Assembly: GCA_000004695.1 (NCBI GenBank)
Contig: CM000152.2
Span: 96,001-160,000, forward strand
DNA from: Dictyostelium discoideum
Taxonomy: Eukaryota
Direction of reading: 5' to 3'
Length of the DNA stretch: 64,000 nt
In this document: piece by piece, positions 2,599 to 30,281 of the stretch
How positions within the stretch are numbered: the stretch's first letter is position 1
How the letters are laid out: each line of letters opens with the position of its first letter
Notes under the pieces: generated by a model
Told to the model about the DNA's origin: nothing
Database searches by the model: none
The model's input: only the letters and a program-made list of their open reading frames with translations
Translations under genes and position numbers: made by a program

Positions 2599-3531
2599 TT
2601 AAATTTCTTCTTCAGGGTAATCACCAACTAAAACATTTTTTGGTTTTGCAAAACAACCATATTTTGGAGAACATTGAAAGTATTGTTTACCTTTAACGGA
2701 ACCATCATTTTTACCTAATGGTAAATCTAATTCTACACCAATCCAAACACCTGAACTAAATTCAACAGTACCAACATATTGAACTTTACCTAATCTTTCA
2801 TCATAGTTTGTTGGATCATCTGAAATTACTTTACATCTATCACCAACTTTAATTTCAATTTCAGTATCAGTTGCATTGTTTGTTGTTGTTGTTGTTGCTG
2901 TTACTGTTGTTGCTGTTGTATCATTTTCTTTCTTTAATTGATTTTCTTCTTTCCACTTTTTATAAGTACCTTCACGTTTATTATAATCTTCTTCAGAAAT
3001 AACTGGTTTTGGTGCTTTTGAAATATCTTGTAATTCAGATACGAAATTATTTGGATCTTTATCAATGATATGAACATTCATACCATCTTTTGGTTCATAT
3101 GATCCTAATGTTTTATCATCATCATCGTCAATTTTACAAATATCATTCACTTTATTTTCATCACGTAAAATTAATTCCATATATTTTGGTTCTGTACCTA
3201 CAAATCTATATAACTATAAAAAATTAAAAAAATTAAAATTAAAAAAATTAATCCCATATATATTAGTTTTATATAAATTTATATTATTATTATTGTTGTT
3301 TTTAATTATTAATTATTATTAATTATTACTTACTTTTTCTTTAAAATCTTTTATTTTGAGATCAAGTGAAAAGTTTTTAAAATTGTTTGTTCCTAATGAT
3401 TCACCTGTTAAAACTGAATGTGTAATTTCTAATCTAACATTACCCTCTGGTGCTTTACCAACTGATATATCTTTACCATCACCAATAATATATTCTCTAA
3501 TTATTTCAAAATCACTTTTTGTTGAACTCAT
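2599..3531 (-). CDS. tbcB: Tubulin-specific chaperone (folding cofactor) B; 2 exons (3531..3334, 3213..2599)
   Basis: Exon 1 (66 codons) encodes a ubiquitin-like N-terminal domain (MSSTKSDFEIIREY...) and ends at a GTAAGTAAT donor (rc at 3325-3333). Exon 2 follows a TTTATAG acceptor (rc 3214-3220) in phase 0. Its C-terminus is a CAP-Gly domain (GKNDGSVKGKQYFQCSPKYGCFAKPKNV) ending DYPEEEI, collinear with human TBCB as recalled. The intron is ~120 nt and >85% AT. Confidence 0.85.
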
Positions 3532-3728
3532 TCTCTTTTTTTTCTTTTGTGTATATTTGTTTTTGTTAAGGTATTTTTGGGAAAATAAAAAAAAAAAATA
3601 AAAAAAAAAAAATTATAAAAAAAACATAATTTTGAGAAGTCGAACAATTTTTTTATAAGAGACTAAAAAATCTGAAAAAAAAAAAAAAAAAAAAAATATA
3701 TTTTTAGAAAAAAAGTTTATTTATTTGT

Positions 3729-3764
<36 letters not shown>

Positions 3765-3769
3765 AAACA

Positions 3770-4330
3770 TTAAAAATCAATGGCATCTTTTGATATATTA
3801 TTATTATTAATATTATTATTATTTTGATTCATTTTTATTTTAATTTCAAAAATTTTTTCAAATGTTTTTAATAATTCACTTTGGGCCAAACTAAATTCAC
3901 TTTCTTTGTTTGTCTGACTTTTTAAAAAACCCACTCTTCTTTTTCTATTTTTTTTTTTTATTTTTTTAATGGTAAAAAATATCAATTAGAATTTAAATTA
4001 AAATTTTTTTAAAAAAAAAAAAAAAAGTAATAATAAAAATTTATATACTCACAAATTTTCACATTCATTTAATAAAATTCTTAATCTTAAAATACATTCA
4101 GATTGATGTTGGATACTTTTTAACTCATCATCTTGTATTTCATCTTCTTCAAAATTACATTTATCAAAAATTTCATTTATATCTTTTAATTTTTTTTTTA
4201 ATTCTTCTGCTGATTCTGTAAAATCATTAATTGTTGTATTTGTGTTTGTAGTTGTATTTGTAGTTGTGCTTGTGGTTGTGGTTGTTTCAGTTTTTTTTTT
4301 TTTTTTTGGGTGGGAATAACTCATTTTCAT
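3770..4330 (-). CDS. Hypothetical small acidic/Thr-rich protein, 2 exons (4330..4053, 3944..3770)
   Basis: ORF 4049..4330 ends at a GTGAGT donor (rc 4047-4052) in phase 2. After a 108-nt AT-rich intron, a TAG acceptor (rc 3945-3947) joins ORF 3770..3985 in the matching phase, giving ~150 aa. No recognisable domain. The model rests only on ORF and splice-signal consistency. Confidence 0.4.
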
Positions 4331-13695: not shown

Positions 13696-16817
<3,122 letters not shown>

Positions 16818-17090: not shown

Positions 17091-17951
17091 TTATTTATTA
17101 TTTGAAGCTAATCTATCCTTCCATTTACTTTTACGTAATTTAATTGGACGATTACCAATATATTTTCCATTCATTGTATTAAAAGCAGAGATATAATCTG
17201 ATGAACTTGAAAAAGAAACAAAACCAAAACCTCTAGATTTACCAACTTTATCAAAGATAACTTTTGCTTTTAAAAAGGTTGGATATTTTAAAAATGCTTG
17301 TCTTAACATTTCTTCGGTGACATCATTACCAAGATCACCAACGAATATACGAAAATCATTTGGATCCCATTCAGCTAAAGTATGATCAGTCCATTTTTCA
17401 CCAGCAGCTTCCATAACTATATTTGTGTTTTTTTTTGGTTCTTCCATTGTAACTTGAGGTCTAAGTGCTGCAATTGATAAATTTGTTGCTGTGGTGGTTG
17501 GATAATTAACTGAAACTTTTGGTTTGTCATTAGCTAATAAATTGATTGTATTTGCTGAATATGTAACTGCTTTTGAAGATACTACAGCTTTACTTGGTGT
17601 ATTACTATTTATTGAAGTTTTTGATACCATTTGTTTCTTTTTCATTAATGAAGGAGGTATCATTGGTTTAACACCAACATTTGTTGATGTTGTATTTGAG
17701 GTAGTAGTAGTAGTAGTAGTTGTAGTTGTTGTAGTTGGTGTAGTAGTAGTGGTTGGTGTATCATCTAATTTTCTTTTTATACCTGCTGTATTTGCACTAC
17801 TAGTAGTGGCTGGTGAAGGTGCTGTACCACCACTATTAGAATTCGAATTTGAGTTAGTCTGTGTTATAATGTTATTAGTATTTTTTGAAGAATCACCCAC
17901 ATTTTCGATTTCTTTAAAAAAGTCATCTATTTCATCATTTTCAGTCGACAT
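17091..17951 (-). CDS. RNA-binding protein, RBM42-like (C-terminal RRM)
   Basis: Single 286-aa ORF. The C-terminus (DPNDFRIFVGDLGNDVTEEMLRQAFLKYPTFLKAKVIFDKVGKSRGFGFVSFSSSSDYISAFNTMNGKYIGNRPIKLRKSKWKDR) is an RRM with RNP1 (RGFGFVSF) and RNP2 (IFVGDL). It is collinear with the RBM42 C-terminus (IFCGDLGNEV...KGYGFVSF...PIKLRKS) as recalled. Thr/Ser-rich N-terminal half. Confidence 0.8.
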   Translation of the reverse strand: MSTENDEIDDFFKEIENVGDSSKNTNNIITQTNSNSNSNSGGTAPSPATTSSANTAGIKRKLDDTPTTTTTPTTTTTTTTTTTTSNTTSTNVGVKPMIPPSLMKKKQMVSKTSINSNTPSKAVVSSKAVTYSANTINLLANDKPKVSVNYPTTTATNLSIAALRPQVTMEEPKKNTNIVMEAAGEKWTDHTLAEWDPNDFRIFVGDLGNDVTEEMLRQAFLKYPTFLKAKVIFDKVGKSRGFGFVSFSSSSDYISAFNTMNGKYIGNRPIKLRKSKWKDRLASNNK

Positions 17952-18290: not shown

Positions 18291-20176
18291 TTATTTTGAA
18301 TCTTTTAAATTTTGATCATTTAAATTTGTAAATGAAGAACTTGTACCAGATAATCTTTTTGTTTTTGATTCTTGAGCCAATTTAACTCTTCTTTCACGTA
18401 AAGACATTTTACCAGATTTCATATCACCAAGTGAATTTGATAATTCTTCAGAGGAATTACCACCATTACTACCGGATAAACTATTGTTACTACCATGGGA
18501 GGCATGATTTTCATTACCACCTATTGATTCAACATCCTTGGTATTGTATTGACCAGAGGAACGAGTGAATTTCTCTTCAATTTTTTGTTTAGTTTGTTCA
18601 GCTTTTTCAACGACATGACTCATTTGTCTATCGTTATGATCACTTAGGGTCTTTTGATATTCTACTTTTTCAATGTTAATTGCTTTAATCCATTCGGAGA
18701 GAGTATCTTTATCGGGGGCAGTAATCATCATAGAGAATGATTTTTCTTTTAGAATTTGAAGATTTAATGAACCTTCAAACTCTTTTAGCACCAATTGATG
18801 AAGGAAAATGATTTGTTCGAATTGAAGACGAATTGTTTTTTGTTTACCAAAGAAAGAGGAACCACTTGATTTATTTGGACGAGTGATTGCCAAACTATCA
18901 TTAAAGAGATAGAGTACGATTAAACTTTTCTTTCCCTTTGGTAGTACCTCATGAAATTCACCTTCCTTAATGAAACGTCTATGAGATTTAGCGAGTTGTT
19001 GAGTTTGATCACCATCTAATTTCTCTTGAATCTCTGCCAACTTCATGATACTTTCAGCCTCCTTTCTCATTTCATTCATATTCTCTGCGACACTATTAAT
19101 CTTTTCAAAGGCGATTTTCAATTGTTCATAGTCTGGATGTGTTGGCCAAGTATGACCAATCATATCTTTGATCAATAATGAGTATCTTGGAATACGTTGA
19201 ATGGGTCTAATTAAGTAATCCTCCAAACCACGTAACTTGATCTCTTCGTTTGATTCCTTAACTTTGTTCAAATAGGATTTGAATTTGGTTTGTTTCTTAC
19301 ATTCATTTAGTACACCCATCGCTTCGCTATAACTTCTACTATATTGAGAGTAGATCTTTAGGAAATTGGAAAACTTTATAAAGATATCACCAATCAATGT
19401 ATCCACTTTCCAGTCTTTAGTTCTACCCTCTAAATCGATCAATAAACGTTTATTGTATGACAAGATAATTGATACTTCACTAAAAATAGATTGAACTTCC
19501 TCTTGTGAAATAATTGGTGATCCCTTTTCAATGGCTTCTCTAAGATCCTTTAAAATATGATCATGAAGAAATGCTAAACGATTAATATATTCAACTTCTG
19601 TTTTCATAATCTCTTGTACAATTCTTTCTCTATAAGCTGAATCACGTGCTTGAATTTTCTTTCTATTTCTTTCAATCCATGCTCTTGTTGCTCTTTGAAT
19701 TCTAATTGCTGCTCTTTCTTCTAATGATAATTTTGTTGTTGTTTTAGTTGTTGTTGTTGTTGTTGTTGTTGGTGTTGGTGTTGTTACATTTGTTGTTGGT
19801 GTTGGTTGTTGTACAGTAGTTGTTGGTGTTGGTGTTGGTGTTGGTGTTGATGTTGATGTTGATGTTGATGTTGCATTTACGGAACTGGTGGAGGTAGTAG
19901 TAGTTGTTGTTGTTGTAGTTGTTGTTGATGGTGTTACAGTTGCAGTTGAAACTACAGTTGATTTAGTTGGTGAAGCAGTATCAGAAGATTTAACAACTGG
20001 TGAAGTTGCTGGTGAATTATTTAATGATACTTGATCTGGTGCTGAAGTACCCTTTACATAACCAGTAATAATTGGTGATGCTGGTTGTGATAAACTATTT
20101 CTATCAGATTTTGGTGACTATTTAATTATAATAAAAAAATAAAATAAAATATTAAAGCATAGTTAGTAAAGGCATT

Positions 20177-20210
<34 letters not shown>

Positions 20211-20400
20211 TTTGTCAAATAAGTGATTATGGTTTTGGTGGAGTGTGGCTTTGTGATTACAAACATTATCAACATCATCATCATTGATTTCAACTTTATC
20301 AACTACCTCTTCTTTATTGATTTCATTGATGCTATTATCTTTTTTAGTTGTGTTACTTTTAGGATTATCATAATTATTACTATTACTAGTACTATTACTA

Positions 20401-20434
<34 letters not shown>

Positions 20435-20812
20435 CACTGTTATTATTTTTATTATTATCTTTTAAACTTTCACTAATATCACCATAACTACTACTAAAAT
20501 GATTTAAACTTGTATTATTTATACTTCCGGCACTACTGCTGACACTACGATTTCTAGAAATCAAGTTATTACTATTTGCGCTATTATAGTGAGTTGTACT
20601 TGAATATTTCCATTGATCCAATGTTTTTGGGGGTGATTGTGCTTGTTGAGTAGGGTTGCTGTTGTTATTATTATTATTATTATTATAATTATCATTATTT
20701 TTATTTGGTTTGAATTTTATTGTACAATATGGGCTATTATATGATGTCCCATTTGATGATATAAATACTGATTTTGATTTACTGGTATTATTATTAAAAA
20801 CACTATTATTAC

Positions 20813-20893
<81 letters not shown>

Positions 20894-22239
20894 GACTGTT
20901 ACTATTATTATTATTATTATTATTATTGTTGTTATTATTATATTTTGTACTATTAAAAAAAGAAGGTTCTTTCCATTTTTTTAATATATCTTTAAATGAA
21001 AATTCCCCCAAACTATTATTATTTTTATTATTATTATTATTATTATTATTACTACTATTACTACTAATATAACTACTATTATTACTACTACTACTACTAC
21101 TACTACTATTATTATTATTATTATTATTATCTACATTTTTATTTTTAATATTAAGATCACTTTTATTATATCTTATACTACCAGTACTATTGCAACTATC
21201 ACTTAAACTACTATTACTATTTATATTGTTTCCACTATTAACAGTCTCATCCTTTATAAAGTCATCCATAGAGTTGGTAGATATTGATGAAGTTGAAAAA
21301 AGAGGTGAAGATGATAAAGAAGAGTAAGATGATGAGGGTGATGATAGTGTACTATTATTTTTACTATTATTATTACTAATACTATTATTAATAATACCAC
21401 CACTATTACTACAATTATTATTATTATTATTATTTAAATTATTATTATTTAAATTATTTACCCTTAAAACAGGACTATTATCAGGATAAAGTTGCTTTTG
21501 TGCGGCGATATGTTTGAATAATTGATTTTTAGTTTCTTCAACAGAGTTACCCTCATTTTGAGTTTGACTCTTTTTAATTACTTCTTGTCTTTTATTCTCT
21601 CTAATTGTAAATTGTGCTAACAATTGTTCTGCATGATTAATTTGATCATTTGAAAATTTCTCTTCCTCTGCATTAAGTTGTGGCCATTCAACTGAAAAAT
21701 CATAATTGCTATCTGAATTTGCAATCTATAATTTTTTTATAATAAAATTAATATAATAAAAATAAATAAAATAAAAATAAATAAAATAAAAATAAAAAAA
21801 TAAATAAGTTTTTATTTTTATTAATAGGGAAAAAAAAAAAAAAAAATAAATAAATAATAATAAAACTTACTTTACAAACAGATTCTAAACATTCAATTAC
21901 TCTTCTAATATTTGAATAAGTGATTTGATTATTAACGATATCTAATAATGTGAATCTTTTATGACGTGGTACACCCATATCAGCACATGCTTGAATAAAG
22001 AAAGATATGTTTTCATTGTATTTGAAACGAATGGTTGTTTTTGGTGTATTGGCTGTATCTGGATTGGAAATTCTTGGCATTAATCTTGGACTAATCGTAT
22101 GCATAACTTTACATAATAATACACCATCATCTAAAATCTGTGCAAAATCTTTACTTTGATCAATTTTAATATCCAATACATTCTCTATCCATTGTAATGC
22201 TGCTTTTTTCTTACAAAGAAATGCTGCTGATTTACTCAT
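18291..22239 (-). CDS. Rho guanine-nucleotide exchange factor with N-terminal CH domain, long Asn/Ser-rich linker, IQ motif, DH (RhoGEF) and PH domains. At least 3 exons
   Basis: Exon 1, 22239..21871: calponin-homology domain (AALQWIENVLDIKI...DGVLLCKVMH...), GTAAGT donor (rc 21865-21870). Exon 2 starts at 21725 after an ATTATAG acceptor and is an open 1.5-kb Asn/Ser-rich frame down to ~20261/20175. The 3' exon, 20117..18291, begins right after an AATTAAATAG acceptor (rc 20118-20127). It encodes a T/S/P-rich linker, an IQ motif (AAIRIQRATRAWIERNRKKIQARD), a DH domain (...LIRPIQRIPRYSLLIKDM...) and a PH-like domain, then stops at 18291. ORF 18291..19607 in the table is only the part downstream of an internal Met. 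The exon 2/3 junction is unresolved (see findings). Confidence 0.7.
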
Positions 22240-22870
22240 TTTATATATTTGATTTTATGTATGTATGTGTATGTATCTGTGTGTATGTGTATGTGTGTGT
22301 GTGTGAGTTAGAAAGTTTTTTTTCTTTTTTAAAAAGTGTATTTTTTTTTTTTTTTTTTTTTTTTTCTTTGTAAAAAAAAAAAAAAAAAAAAAAAGTGAGA
22401 AAGAAAATTATAAAAACTATTTATATTATTTATTTATTTAATTTTATTTATTTTTATTTATTTTTATTGTGTGTGTGTGTGTGATACTATCTTGATGGTG
22501 AGTTTTGTGAATGAGTAATGTACTGGGAGTGTGGTTTTTGAGAAAAGAATAAAAAAAAGAAAAAATTAAAAAAAAAAAAAAAATTTCTTTTTTTTATTTT
22601 TTTTATTTTTATTTTTATTTTTGGATGTGTGTGTTAAATGTGATTTTTTTTGATTTTTTTTTTAAACAAAATGAAACAAAAATAAAAATAAAAAAATAAA
22701 AAAATAAAAAAATAAAAAAATAAAAAAAATATATATATACTGAGGTTATATGTGTGATTGTGATTGAAAGTGTTGATAGTGGATTAATATTTTTTTTTTT
22801 TTTTTTTTTTTCTAAAATTTTATTATAAAAAAAAAAAAATTTAAAAAAAAAAAAAAAAATGGGTTGGTTC

Positions 22871-29578: not shown

Positions 29579-30281
29579 ATGTCATTAAAAATTTTAGTAC
29601 CAATTAAACGTGTTGTTGATTATGCAGTAAAGATTAGAGTAAAAGGTGATAAATCAGGTGTTGAAACAGCAAATGTAAAGATGAGTATGAACCCATTCGA
29701 TGAGATTGCAGTTGAAGAAGCAATCAGAATTAAAGAGAAAAATTTAGCAAAAGAGATCATTGCAGTTTCAATGGGACCAAAAACATCACAAGAAACAATT
29801 AGAACTGCAATTGCAATGGGTGCAGATAAAGGTATTCACGTTGAAACCACTGCTGAATTACAACCATTAAGTGTTGCAAAATTATTAAAAGAATTAGTTG
29901 ATAAAGAGAAACCAAATTTAATCATTCTTGGTAAACAAGCAATTGATGATGATTGTAATCAAACTGCTCAAATGTTAGCTGGTTTATTAAATTGGCCACA
30001 AGGTAATTTAATATATATTTAATATTATTATATAAAGTTTTTACTAATTTCAATAATAATAATTTAGCAACATTTGCATCAAAGGTTGATATTAAAGATG
30101 ATAGTGTACATGTTACTCGTGAAATTGATGGTGGTTTAGAAACACTTTCAATGAAATTACCAGCTATAATTTCATGTGACCTTAGATTAAATGAACCAAG
30201 ATATGCAAAATTACAAAATATGTAAGTATTAAATATTTATTTTATTTTTTTATTTTATTTTTAAATAAATAAATTAATTAA

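Follow-up and report, generated by a model that had tools for sequence, protein, structure and literature searches.

The junction at positions 20118-20265 of the window, a 64,000-nucleotide stretch of Dictyostelium discoideum DNA (GenBank assembly GCA_000004695.1, contig CM000152.2, positions 96,001 to 160,000), very likely lies within one gene and is closed by GT-AG splicing in phase 0. The gene is RacGEF1, and the locus is probably a single three-exon gene on the minus strand that encodes a CH domain, a long disordered N/S-rich region, an IQ motif, and DH and PH domains, with two phase-0 donors that share one acceptor. The gap between 20118 and 20264 is an ordinary U2-type GT-AG phase-0 intron whose donor is weak. 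Both the gene and the 1218-aa model have been described before, and the sole new element is a probable pair of candidate alternative 5' splice sites. A literature search of limited reach found no description of such sites for RacGEF1 and, to our knowledge, functional alternative splicing has rarely been documented in D. discoideum. The features of the gene are as follows:

22239-21871, minus strand: exon 1, 123 codons from the ATG at 22239, encoding the CH domain and ending in phase 0
21726-21870, minus strand: intron 1, 145 nt, GTAAGT...TATAG, 4.8% GC
21462-21725, minus strand: common part of exon 2, 88 codons (IANSD...QLYPDNSPVLR), conserved in all orthologues
20265-21461, minus strand: N/S-rich block of 399 codons, translated in the long form but lying within a 1344-nt intron in the short form
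21456-21461, minus strand: distal candidate donor, GTAAAT in phase 0, directly preceded by AGG (21464-21462)
20259-20264, minus strand: proximal donor, GTTTGT in phase 0, used in the published 1218-aa model
20255-20260, minus strand: overlapping GTAATC, 4 nt downstream of the proximal donor, in phase 1, the use of which would shift the frame
20118-20264, minus strand: proximal intron, 147 nt, with an in-frame TAA, an A31 run, two branch motifs and the acceptor AATTAAATAG
18291-20117, minus strand: exon 3, 608 codons plus a stop (18293-18291)

Exon 1 matched the Pfam CH domain (E=7e-14), its junction with exon 2 (CK/IANSD; slashes mark splice points) is collinear with orthologues, and intron 1 occupies the same position in D. 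purpureum (GTAAGT) and Polysphondylium violaceum (GTATGT). From 21725, a long minus-strand ORF extends to an in-frame TAA at 20177-20175. Direct reading and a script both placed this ORF in frame with the exon that begins at 20117, in agreement with the first-pass annotation of this stretch, which had also correctly described the 57 nt that follow the TAA (20174-20118) as AT-rich and ending in AATTAAATAG, the AG of which (20119-20118) is in phase 0. Exon 3 encodes, in order, SPKSDRNSL..., a T/P-rich linker, IQ, DH, PH, and a C-terminal tail. Of the CH-IQ-DH-PH architecture that had been proposed for the gene, CH and RhoGEF (PF00621; E=9.5e-48) exceed the Pfam threshold, whereas the IQ and PH (PF22697) matches in exon 3 (E=3.6e-4) fall under the gathering score. 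A PH domain is precomputed on orthologues, and the DH-then-PH order of Dbl-family RhoGEFs is present in exon 3, with the PH match itself below the gathering score.

RacGEF1 of D. discoideum was reportedly described by Park and colleagues in the EMBO Journal in 2004 (23:4177). When we built candidate models across the donors, GTTTGT alone yielded a protein of 1218 aa in which exon 3 corresponds to residues 611-1218. The published length of RacGEF1 is 1218 aa (PMC6413885), and a catalytic RacGEF1 construct was prepared from the 'sequence encoding 611-1,218 amino acids', 'amplified from genome DNA' (Miao et al., 2019; PMC6413885). Since both published numbers are reproduced, the gene is RacGEF1 and its accepted model uses GTTTGT (20264) and the AG at 20118. 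The identification is based on these two numbers and the domain order: the gene in the window and published RacGEF1 share a length of 1218 aa, a contiguous 3' genomic block for residues 611-1218, and a RhoGEF domain combined with an N-terminal CH domain, and we know of no difference between them in this comparison of two numbers and domain order. The predicted mass of the 1218-aa form is 136.5 kDa. Exact look-up of nine candidate gene models and of the neighbouring RRM ORF returned no match in the protein collection.

Several other donors were considered and rejected. GTTGAT (20273-20268), like GTTTGT (20264-20259), is in phase 0 as first described. Models through GTTGAT at 20273 (1215 aa), GTAGTT at 20306 (1204 aa), and GTTTTA at 21470 (816 aa) fit neither the published length nor the orthologue alignment. 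Pairing GTAATC with an AG at 20082-20081 is phase-matched and yields 1207 aa, but deletes the conserved peptide SPKSDRNSLSQP.

The first-pass annotation had held that no canonical, phase-compatible intron could close the junction. The proximal intron is both: it carries GT at its 5' end and AG at its 3' end (GTTTGT...AATTAAATAG), donor and acceptor are each in phase 0, and splicing (...GATGTTGATAAT/TCACCAAAATCT; in a longer version, ATGATGATGATGTTGATAAT/TCACCAAAATCTGATAGAAA) restores one ORF of 1218 aa with a single terminal stop. Only the hexamer is weak. GTTTGT fits the GTAAGT-like species consensus at +1, +2, +5, and +6 only, with no A at +3 or +4, and thus departs from a consensus 5' splice site, which has A at +3. 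The earlier suggestion of one gene with a non-canonical donor therefore holds for one gene with a poor donor but not for a non-canonical one, the donor still being GT. No match to the U12-type donor RTATCCTT was found between 20330 and 20118, and no motif for a GC-AG donor is present at the junction.

Other properties of the proximal intron can be compared with those of D. discoideum introns in general, for which ACTAAT is the commonest branch motif, mean length is 143 nt, and AT content is 89% (PMC2483917). The intron contains two branch-point motifs (WCTAAY), ACTAAT (20179-20174) and ACTAAC (20167-20162), located 57 and 45 nt from its AG, respectively. Its length of 147 nt is close to the species mean of 143 nt. 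GC content averages 19.7% but is uneven, at 33% over the first 60 nt and 10% thereafter, such that AT content is 80% as opposed to the typical 89%, and the first 60 nt (67% AT) are unusual for this genome. A donor weight matrix was attempted from the window without a prior consensus and yielded too few clean introns, and was used qualitatively only. In the small heuristic sample of frame-preserving introns that could be inferred elsewhere in the window, every one offers a GTA-type donor. It is likely that the proximal donor is used in D. discoideum.

GTAATC (20260-20255), which is in phase 1 as reported, had been singled out as the only good upstream donor; this overlooked a strong phase-0 donor, AGG/GTAAAT at 21461, that pairs with the same acceptor. 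Were GTAATC really cut, the resulting mRNA would either encode a frameshifted product of 615 aa or be subject to decay, with unproductive splicing lowering the output of GEF. In keeping with this scenario, GTAA at +1 to +4 fits the consensus, the same offset holds GTAATT in D. purpureum and GTAAAT in P. violaceum, and GTAATT at 30003, another site in the window, appears to act as a donor. However, GTAATC has no G at +5 and no T at +6, its product (...DNVFTKI; junction TGATGATGTTGATAATGTTT/TCACCAAAATCTGATAGAAA, a +4 frameshift) stops at 615 aa, 4 codons into exon 3, and its use would render the conserved phase-0 GT and phase-0 acceptor pointless. We consider cutting at GTAATC very unlikely.

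A protein search with exon 3 as the query recovered homologs in D. purpureum (P0001), P. violaceum (P0002), A. subglobosum (P0005), and further dictyostelids. Most of these orthologues unite CH and RhoGEF in one protein, and the D. purpureum, P. violaceum, and A. subglobosum models each encode CH and DH-PH in one gene. We retrieved the D. purpureum and P. violaceum genomic loci and mapped the proteins onto them. Both loci have the same layout as the window, comprising QLYPDNSP, an in-frame N/S-rich block, an in-frame stop, an AT-rich stretch, and the acceptor, which lies directly ahead of SPK(S/L)D in all three species. The block ends in AAT/GTnnGTAA in all three, the first GT being in phase 0: AAT/GTTTGTAA in the window, AAT/GTCAGTAA in D. 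purpureum, and AAT/GTCAGTAA in P. violaceum. The hexamer at this GT is GTTTGT in the window and GTCAGT in the two other species. Peptide similarity among the three ends exactly at the phase-0 GT, and the in-frame stop comes 29 codons after this GT in the window, after 8 codons in D. purpureum, and after about 50 in P. violaceum.

These comparisons bear on two further interpretations raised by the first-pass annotation. The first holds that two adjacent genes are present, a CH protein ending at the TAA at 20175 and a separate RhoGEF with a missing 5' exon, as the in-frame stop 57 nt ahead of the 3' exon might indicate. Against this, there is no room for a promoter, and exon 3 contains no ATG before 19607, which itself lies within the DH domain and 3' of the conserved IQ motif. 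Moreover, CH and DH-PH share one ORF in every orthologue and in contigs of spliced mRNA from two further dictyostelids, and the arrangement of a stop followed by an acceptor is conserved in D. purpureum and P. violaceum. Two separate genes are thus scarcely credible.

The second interpretation invokes a 1-nt sequencing error in the A/T homopolymer that hides a continuous frame or a phase match. Long homopolymers are error-prone and the run is long, at 31 nt (20179-20209, given earlier as a 29-nt poly(T) run; A31 at 20209-20179 on the coding strand, inside the proximal intron). Nevertheless, each of the three frames is closed by a stop in the interval from the run to the acceptor, and this interval contains no GT. 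Every donor lies upstream of the run, and the length of the run therefore cannot alter any phase. Orthologues that do not have the run have the same structure: in D. purpureum, with which a comparison had been proposed, and in P. violaceum, the same in-frame stop precedes the same acceptor and no homopolymer run is present. The probability of such an error as the explanation is negligible. Read-through or frameshifting on the A31 run was likewise rejected given stops in all frames.

With the junction assigned to one gene, we turn to the second candidate donor. The distal AGG/GTAAAT at 21461 pairs in phase 0 with the acceptor AG at 20119-20118 to define an intron of 1344 nt, about ten times the species mean. 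Joining 21462 to 20117 (...CCTGTTTTAAGG/TCACCAAAATCT; in a longer version, ATAATAGTCCTGTTTTAAGG/TCACCAAAATCTGATAGAAA) yields a protein of 819 aa, ...DNSPVLR/SPKSDRNSL..., from which the N/S-rich block is gone, with a predicted mass of 92.7 kDa. This model is collinear with the homologs P0001, P0006, and P0025, and the long and short forms differ by 1197 nt, a multiple of three. Two GT donors (21461 and 20264) are therefore phase-compatible with one AG. Conservation of both extends to D. purpureum and P. violaceum, but this arrangement is not present in A. subglobosum.

The distal site is in phase 0 in three species, as AGG/GTAAAT in the window and D. purpureum and as AAG/GTAAAG in P. violaceum, and it sits within a 17-nt island identical between the window and D. 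purpureum. AGG accounts for 1 of the 43 Arg codons of the gene, precisely at the distal donor, as would be expected under selection for a G at the -1 position of a donor. Conservation of GTAAAT could in part be at the protein level, as Val-Asn in an N-rich region.

Homologs from other dictyostelids differ in the donor that they reflect. The D. purpureum orthologue (DICPUDRAFT_99548; P0001, 780 aa) exhibits 72% identity over exon 3, is flanked by the same RRM gene, and has the same two donors and acceptor. It differs in being annotated with the distal donor (..DNSPQQR/SPKSDRNSL..), such that the block is missing from the protein; at the genomic locus, nonetheless, an in-frame block of 306 codons is still present, with motifs as in the window. 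The P. violaceum protein (CYY_006610; P0002, 1059 aa) has the same layout, and its model uses the proximal AAT/GTCAGT donor. Exact look-up of long and truncated D. purpureum models and of a short P. violaceum model found no match to these models in the protein collection but revealed P0025 (774 aa), which derives from a metatranscriptome and a relative of P. violaceum and reads DNSPQK/SPKLDG, as use of the distal GTAAAG donor would give. The long form P0002 and the short form P0025 are from two related species (83-92% DNA identity) rather than from one genome. A metagenome scan for further orthologous loci recovered only one distant locus, at 27% identity.

The short junction exists as mRNA in two other dictyostelids. 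P0006 (762 aa), which has the short junction, is encoded by a single unbroken ORF, flanked by short UTRs, on contigs of 2.4 kb (L004-L007) from four RNA sequencing runs, and these contigs therefore represent spliced mRNA. P0025 is encoded on contigs L010 and L011. Contigs L003 and L010 share 2040 nt at 100% identity, yet L003 retains intron-1 sequence that is missing from L010, which indicates that at least L010 and L011 are RNA-derived. Relative to P. violaceum (83-92% identity), L010 and L011 are missing exactly gene positions 796-1922, from GTAAAG to the shared TAG. Transcripts from these two dictyostelids show the short form only, and the long forms were seen as gene predictions only; the two species with short-form mRNA may have genomes that do not contain the block. 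Collectively, the conserved site and the transcripts of relatives suggest that the distal donor is quite probably used in D. discoideum.

The N/S-rich block had been treated as a constitutive 1.5-kb exon. Its coding character stands, whereas the comparative data suggest that it may be spliced out. The block frame is open over 399 codons, an outcome found in 0 of 20,000 shuffles, and the other two frames contain 15 and 196 stops. Equivalent blocks are open for 306 codons in D. purpureum and 283 codons in P. violaceum. Motifs common to all three are FSFKDILKKW..PSFF, SPYCTIK, and RxRSxSS, which extend to FSFKDILKKW(K/R)(E/D)PSFFN, YNSPYCTIK(F/Y)KP, and R(N/S)RS(V/I)SS in the comparison of the window with D. 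purpureum. No Pfam family was found for the block. The equivalent block in A. subglobosum is part of an ordinary contiguous exon, and a CH-block-GEF protein is therefore ancestral. Judged from its sequence, the block is coding and its frame is still maintained. Unspliced RNA would encode a 639-aa CH-only product of 71.7 kDa with a poly-Lys end.

These observations can be set against two readings in which a single donor is productive. In one, only the distal donor is productive, the real GEF is the 819-aa protein, and the 1218-aa form is a product of annotation forced across a non-functional GTTTGT; any RNA in which the block is kept would then be a retained-intron form that either encodes the 639-aa CH-only protein with its poly-Lys tail or is degraded. 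The poor match of GTTTGT to a donor and the good match of AGG/GTAAAT, with its rare codon, are consistent with this reading, as are the recovery of the short form alone in both species with transcript contigs and the annotation of D. purpureum. It is difficult to reconcile, however, with a 399-codon block whose ORF and motifs are maintained in three species, with a block-junction GT and an acceptor that are both in phase 0 in all three, with the block being a constitutive exon in A. subglobosum, and with the use of residues 611-1218 in the literature. In addition, long isoforms with N repeats assemble badly from short reads, and their absence from contigs is thus weak evidence. Productive splicing from the distal donor alone is accordingly unlikely.

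In the other, GTTTGT alone is used, the upstream GTAAAT is a mere Val-Asn codon pair preserved with a conserved peptide, and a single protein of 1218 aa is made. The published length matches this reading, an intron of 147 nt is typical where one of 1344 nt is not, and GTAAAT occurs 71 times in the window, counting both strands. Yet D. purpureum and P. violaceum have the distal GT at precisely the same codon, the G at -1 is provided by a rare AGG codon, and the exact short junction is present in mRNAs of the P. violaceum relative, with boundaries that coincide with GTAAAG...TAG of P. violaceum. Exclusive use of the proximal donor is likewise improbable.

We favor the interpretation that two phase-0 donors can each pair with a single acceptor, which precedes SPKSDR. 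Splicing from the weak proximal GTTTGT (20264) would remove the 147-nt intron and give the published 1218-aa protein. Splicing from the strong distal AGG/GTAAAT (21461) would remove 1344 nt, including the 399-codon block, and give an 819-aa CH-IQ-DH-PH protein. The strong distal site may be able to compete because the proximal site is weak. From the genomic and comparative data, the chance that both serve as alternative 5' splice sites in D. discoideum itself is slightly below even. The broader proposal is more tentative still: a conserved two-donor RacGEF1 in group-4 dictyostelids and the violaceum complex, in which a coding segment of 0.85-1.2 kb doubles as an intron.

If two donors are used, RacGEF1 would occur as a 136.5-kDa form with the disordered region and its conserved short motifs and a 92.7-kDa form without them, and a GEF-less CH-only protein from unspliced RNA would also be possible. 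The persistently weak proximal donor would then represent a regulatory knob, and 'full-length RacGEF1' would be just one natural isoform of this chemotaxis regulator. The comparative data also matter for studies of RacGEF1, as they predict an isoform of 819 aa in which the low-complexity region is missing entirely, a point that bears on constructs referred to as 'full-length'. As regards annotation, what looked like a defect is neither an assembly error nor a pseudogene or gene fusion, and the sequence reproduces the published 1218-aa model.

The toggling of a disordered region by alternative 5' splice sites is a known type of splicing event. Exitrons, described in the plant and animal literature, are protein-coding segments that can be spliced out. 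The candidate event in RacGEF1 resembles them in that a 1197-nt coding segment, a multiple of three, would be removed in frame and would toggle a disordered region. It differs in that 147 nt of true non-coding intron, containing a stop codon, would be excised together with the coding segment, and in that two donors share one acceptor rather than an exitron lying within a single exon. At the protein level, RacGEF1 resembles Vav, alpha-PIX, and Dictyostelium GxcDD (PMC1914345) in having a single N-terminal CH domain, IQ motif(s), and a DH-PH tandem. The additional PH and ArfGAP domains of GxcDD (PMC1914345) are missing from RacGEF1, which differs from CH-DH-PH Rho exchange factors in its very long low-complexity spacer.

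The proximal intron of RacGEF1 begins with tandem donors spaced 4 nt apart (GTnnGTAA, window 20255-20264, minus strand), and this arrangement is conserved in three species, recurring at the equivalent positions of the Dictyostelium purpureum (L001) and Polysphondylium violaceum (L002) loci. Such a motif would let U1 bind in two registers, of which one would be productive and the other frameshifting.

A protein search conducted with a 272-aa query that included the well-conserved CH domain returned zero matches, though the annotated D. purpureum orthologue (P0001) has long stretches identical to the query. The word index of that search evidently missed P0001, and its negative results should therefore be treated with caution.

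The following features were identified in the region 3' of RacGEF1:

Window 17091-17951, minus strand: 286-aa ORF with an RRM-like region at its C-terminus, on the same strand as RacGEF1 and immediately 3' of it.
Window 15483-16817, plus strand: Cys-rich repeat ORFs with CxxC/DxC-type repeats, ending in a hydrophobic, Ala/Gly-rich segment.
Window 15808-15903, plus strand: candidate intron in the Cys-rich ORF region (aag|GTAAAT...TTTTAG).

An RRM_1 gene follows the D. purpureum RacGEF1 orthologue (L001 7307-7606) in the same position and orientation as the RRM-like ORF, so gene order is locally conserved. The Cys-rich ORFs are probably exons of a single secreted or membrane protein. In a relative of P. 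violaceum, the RNA-derived contig that carries the short-form orthologue (L010) continues into a convergent gene ~210 nt beyond the stop codon (2954-4105, reverse strand), and this neighbour is syntenic with L002 6802-8140. This continuation reflects either transcripts that overlap at their 3' ends or a join made during assembly.

Within the N/S-rich block of RacGEF1, an unbroken (AAT)n tract (window 20800-20900, minus strand) encodes ~26 consecutive Asn, with a GC content of 0% across 60 nt. Its length likely differs among strains, and the tract would impede assembly of the long isoform from short reads.

CA-rich, (CA)n-like stretches were also observed closely 5' of the RacGEF1 ATG (window 22250-22330 and 22470-22540, minus strand). 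A comparable C/A-rich stretch opens the proximal intron, making up its initial 50 nt (20255-20212), and the P. violaceum proximal intron likewise contains one. These may reflect general non-coding composition or a shared element.
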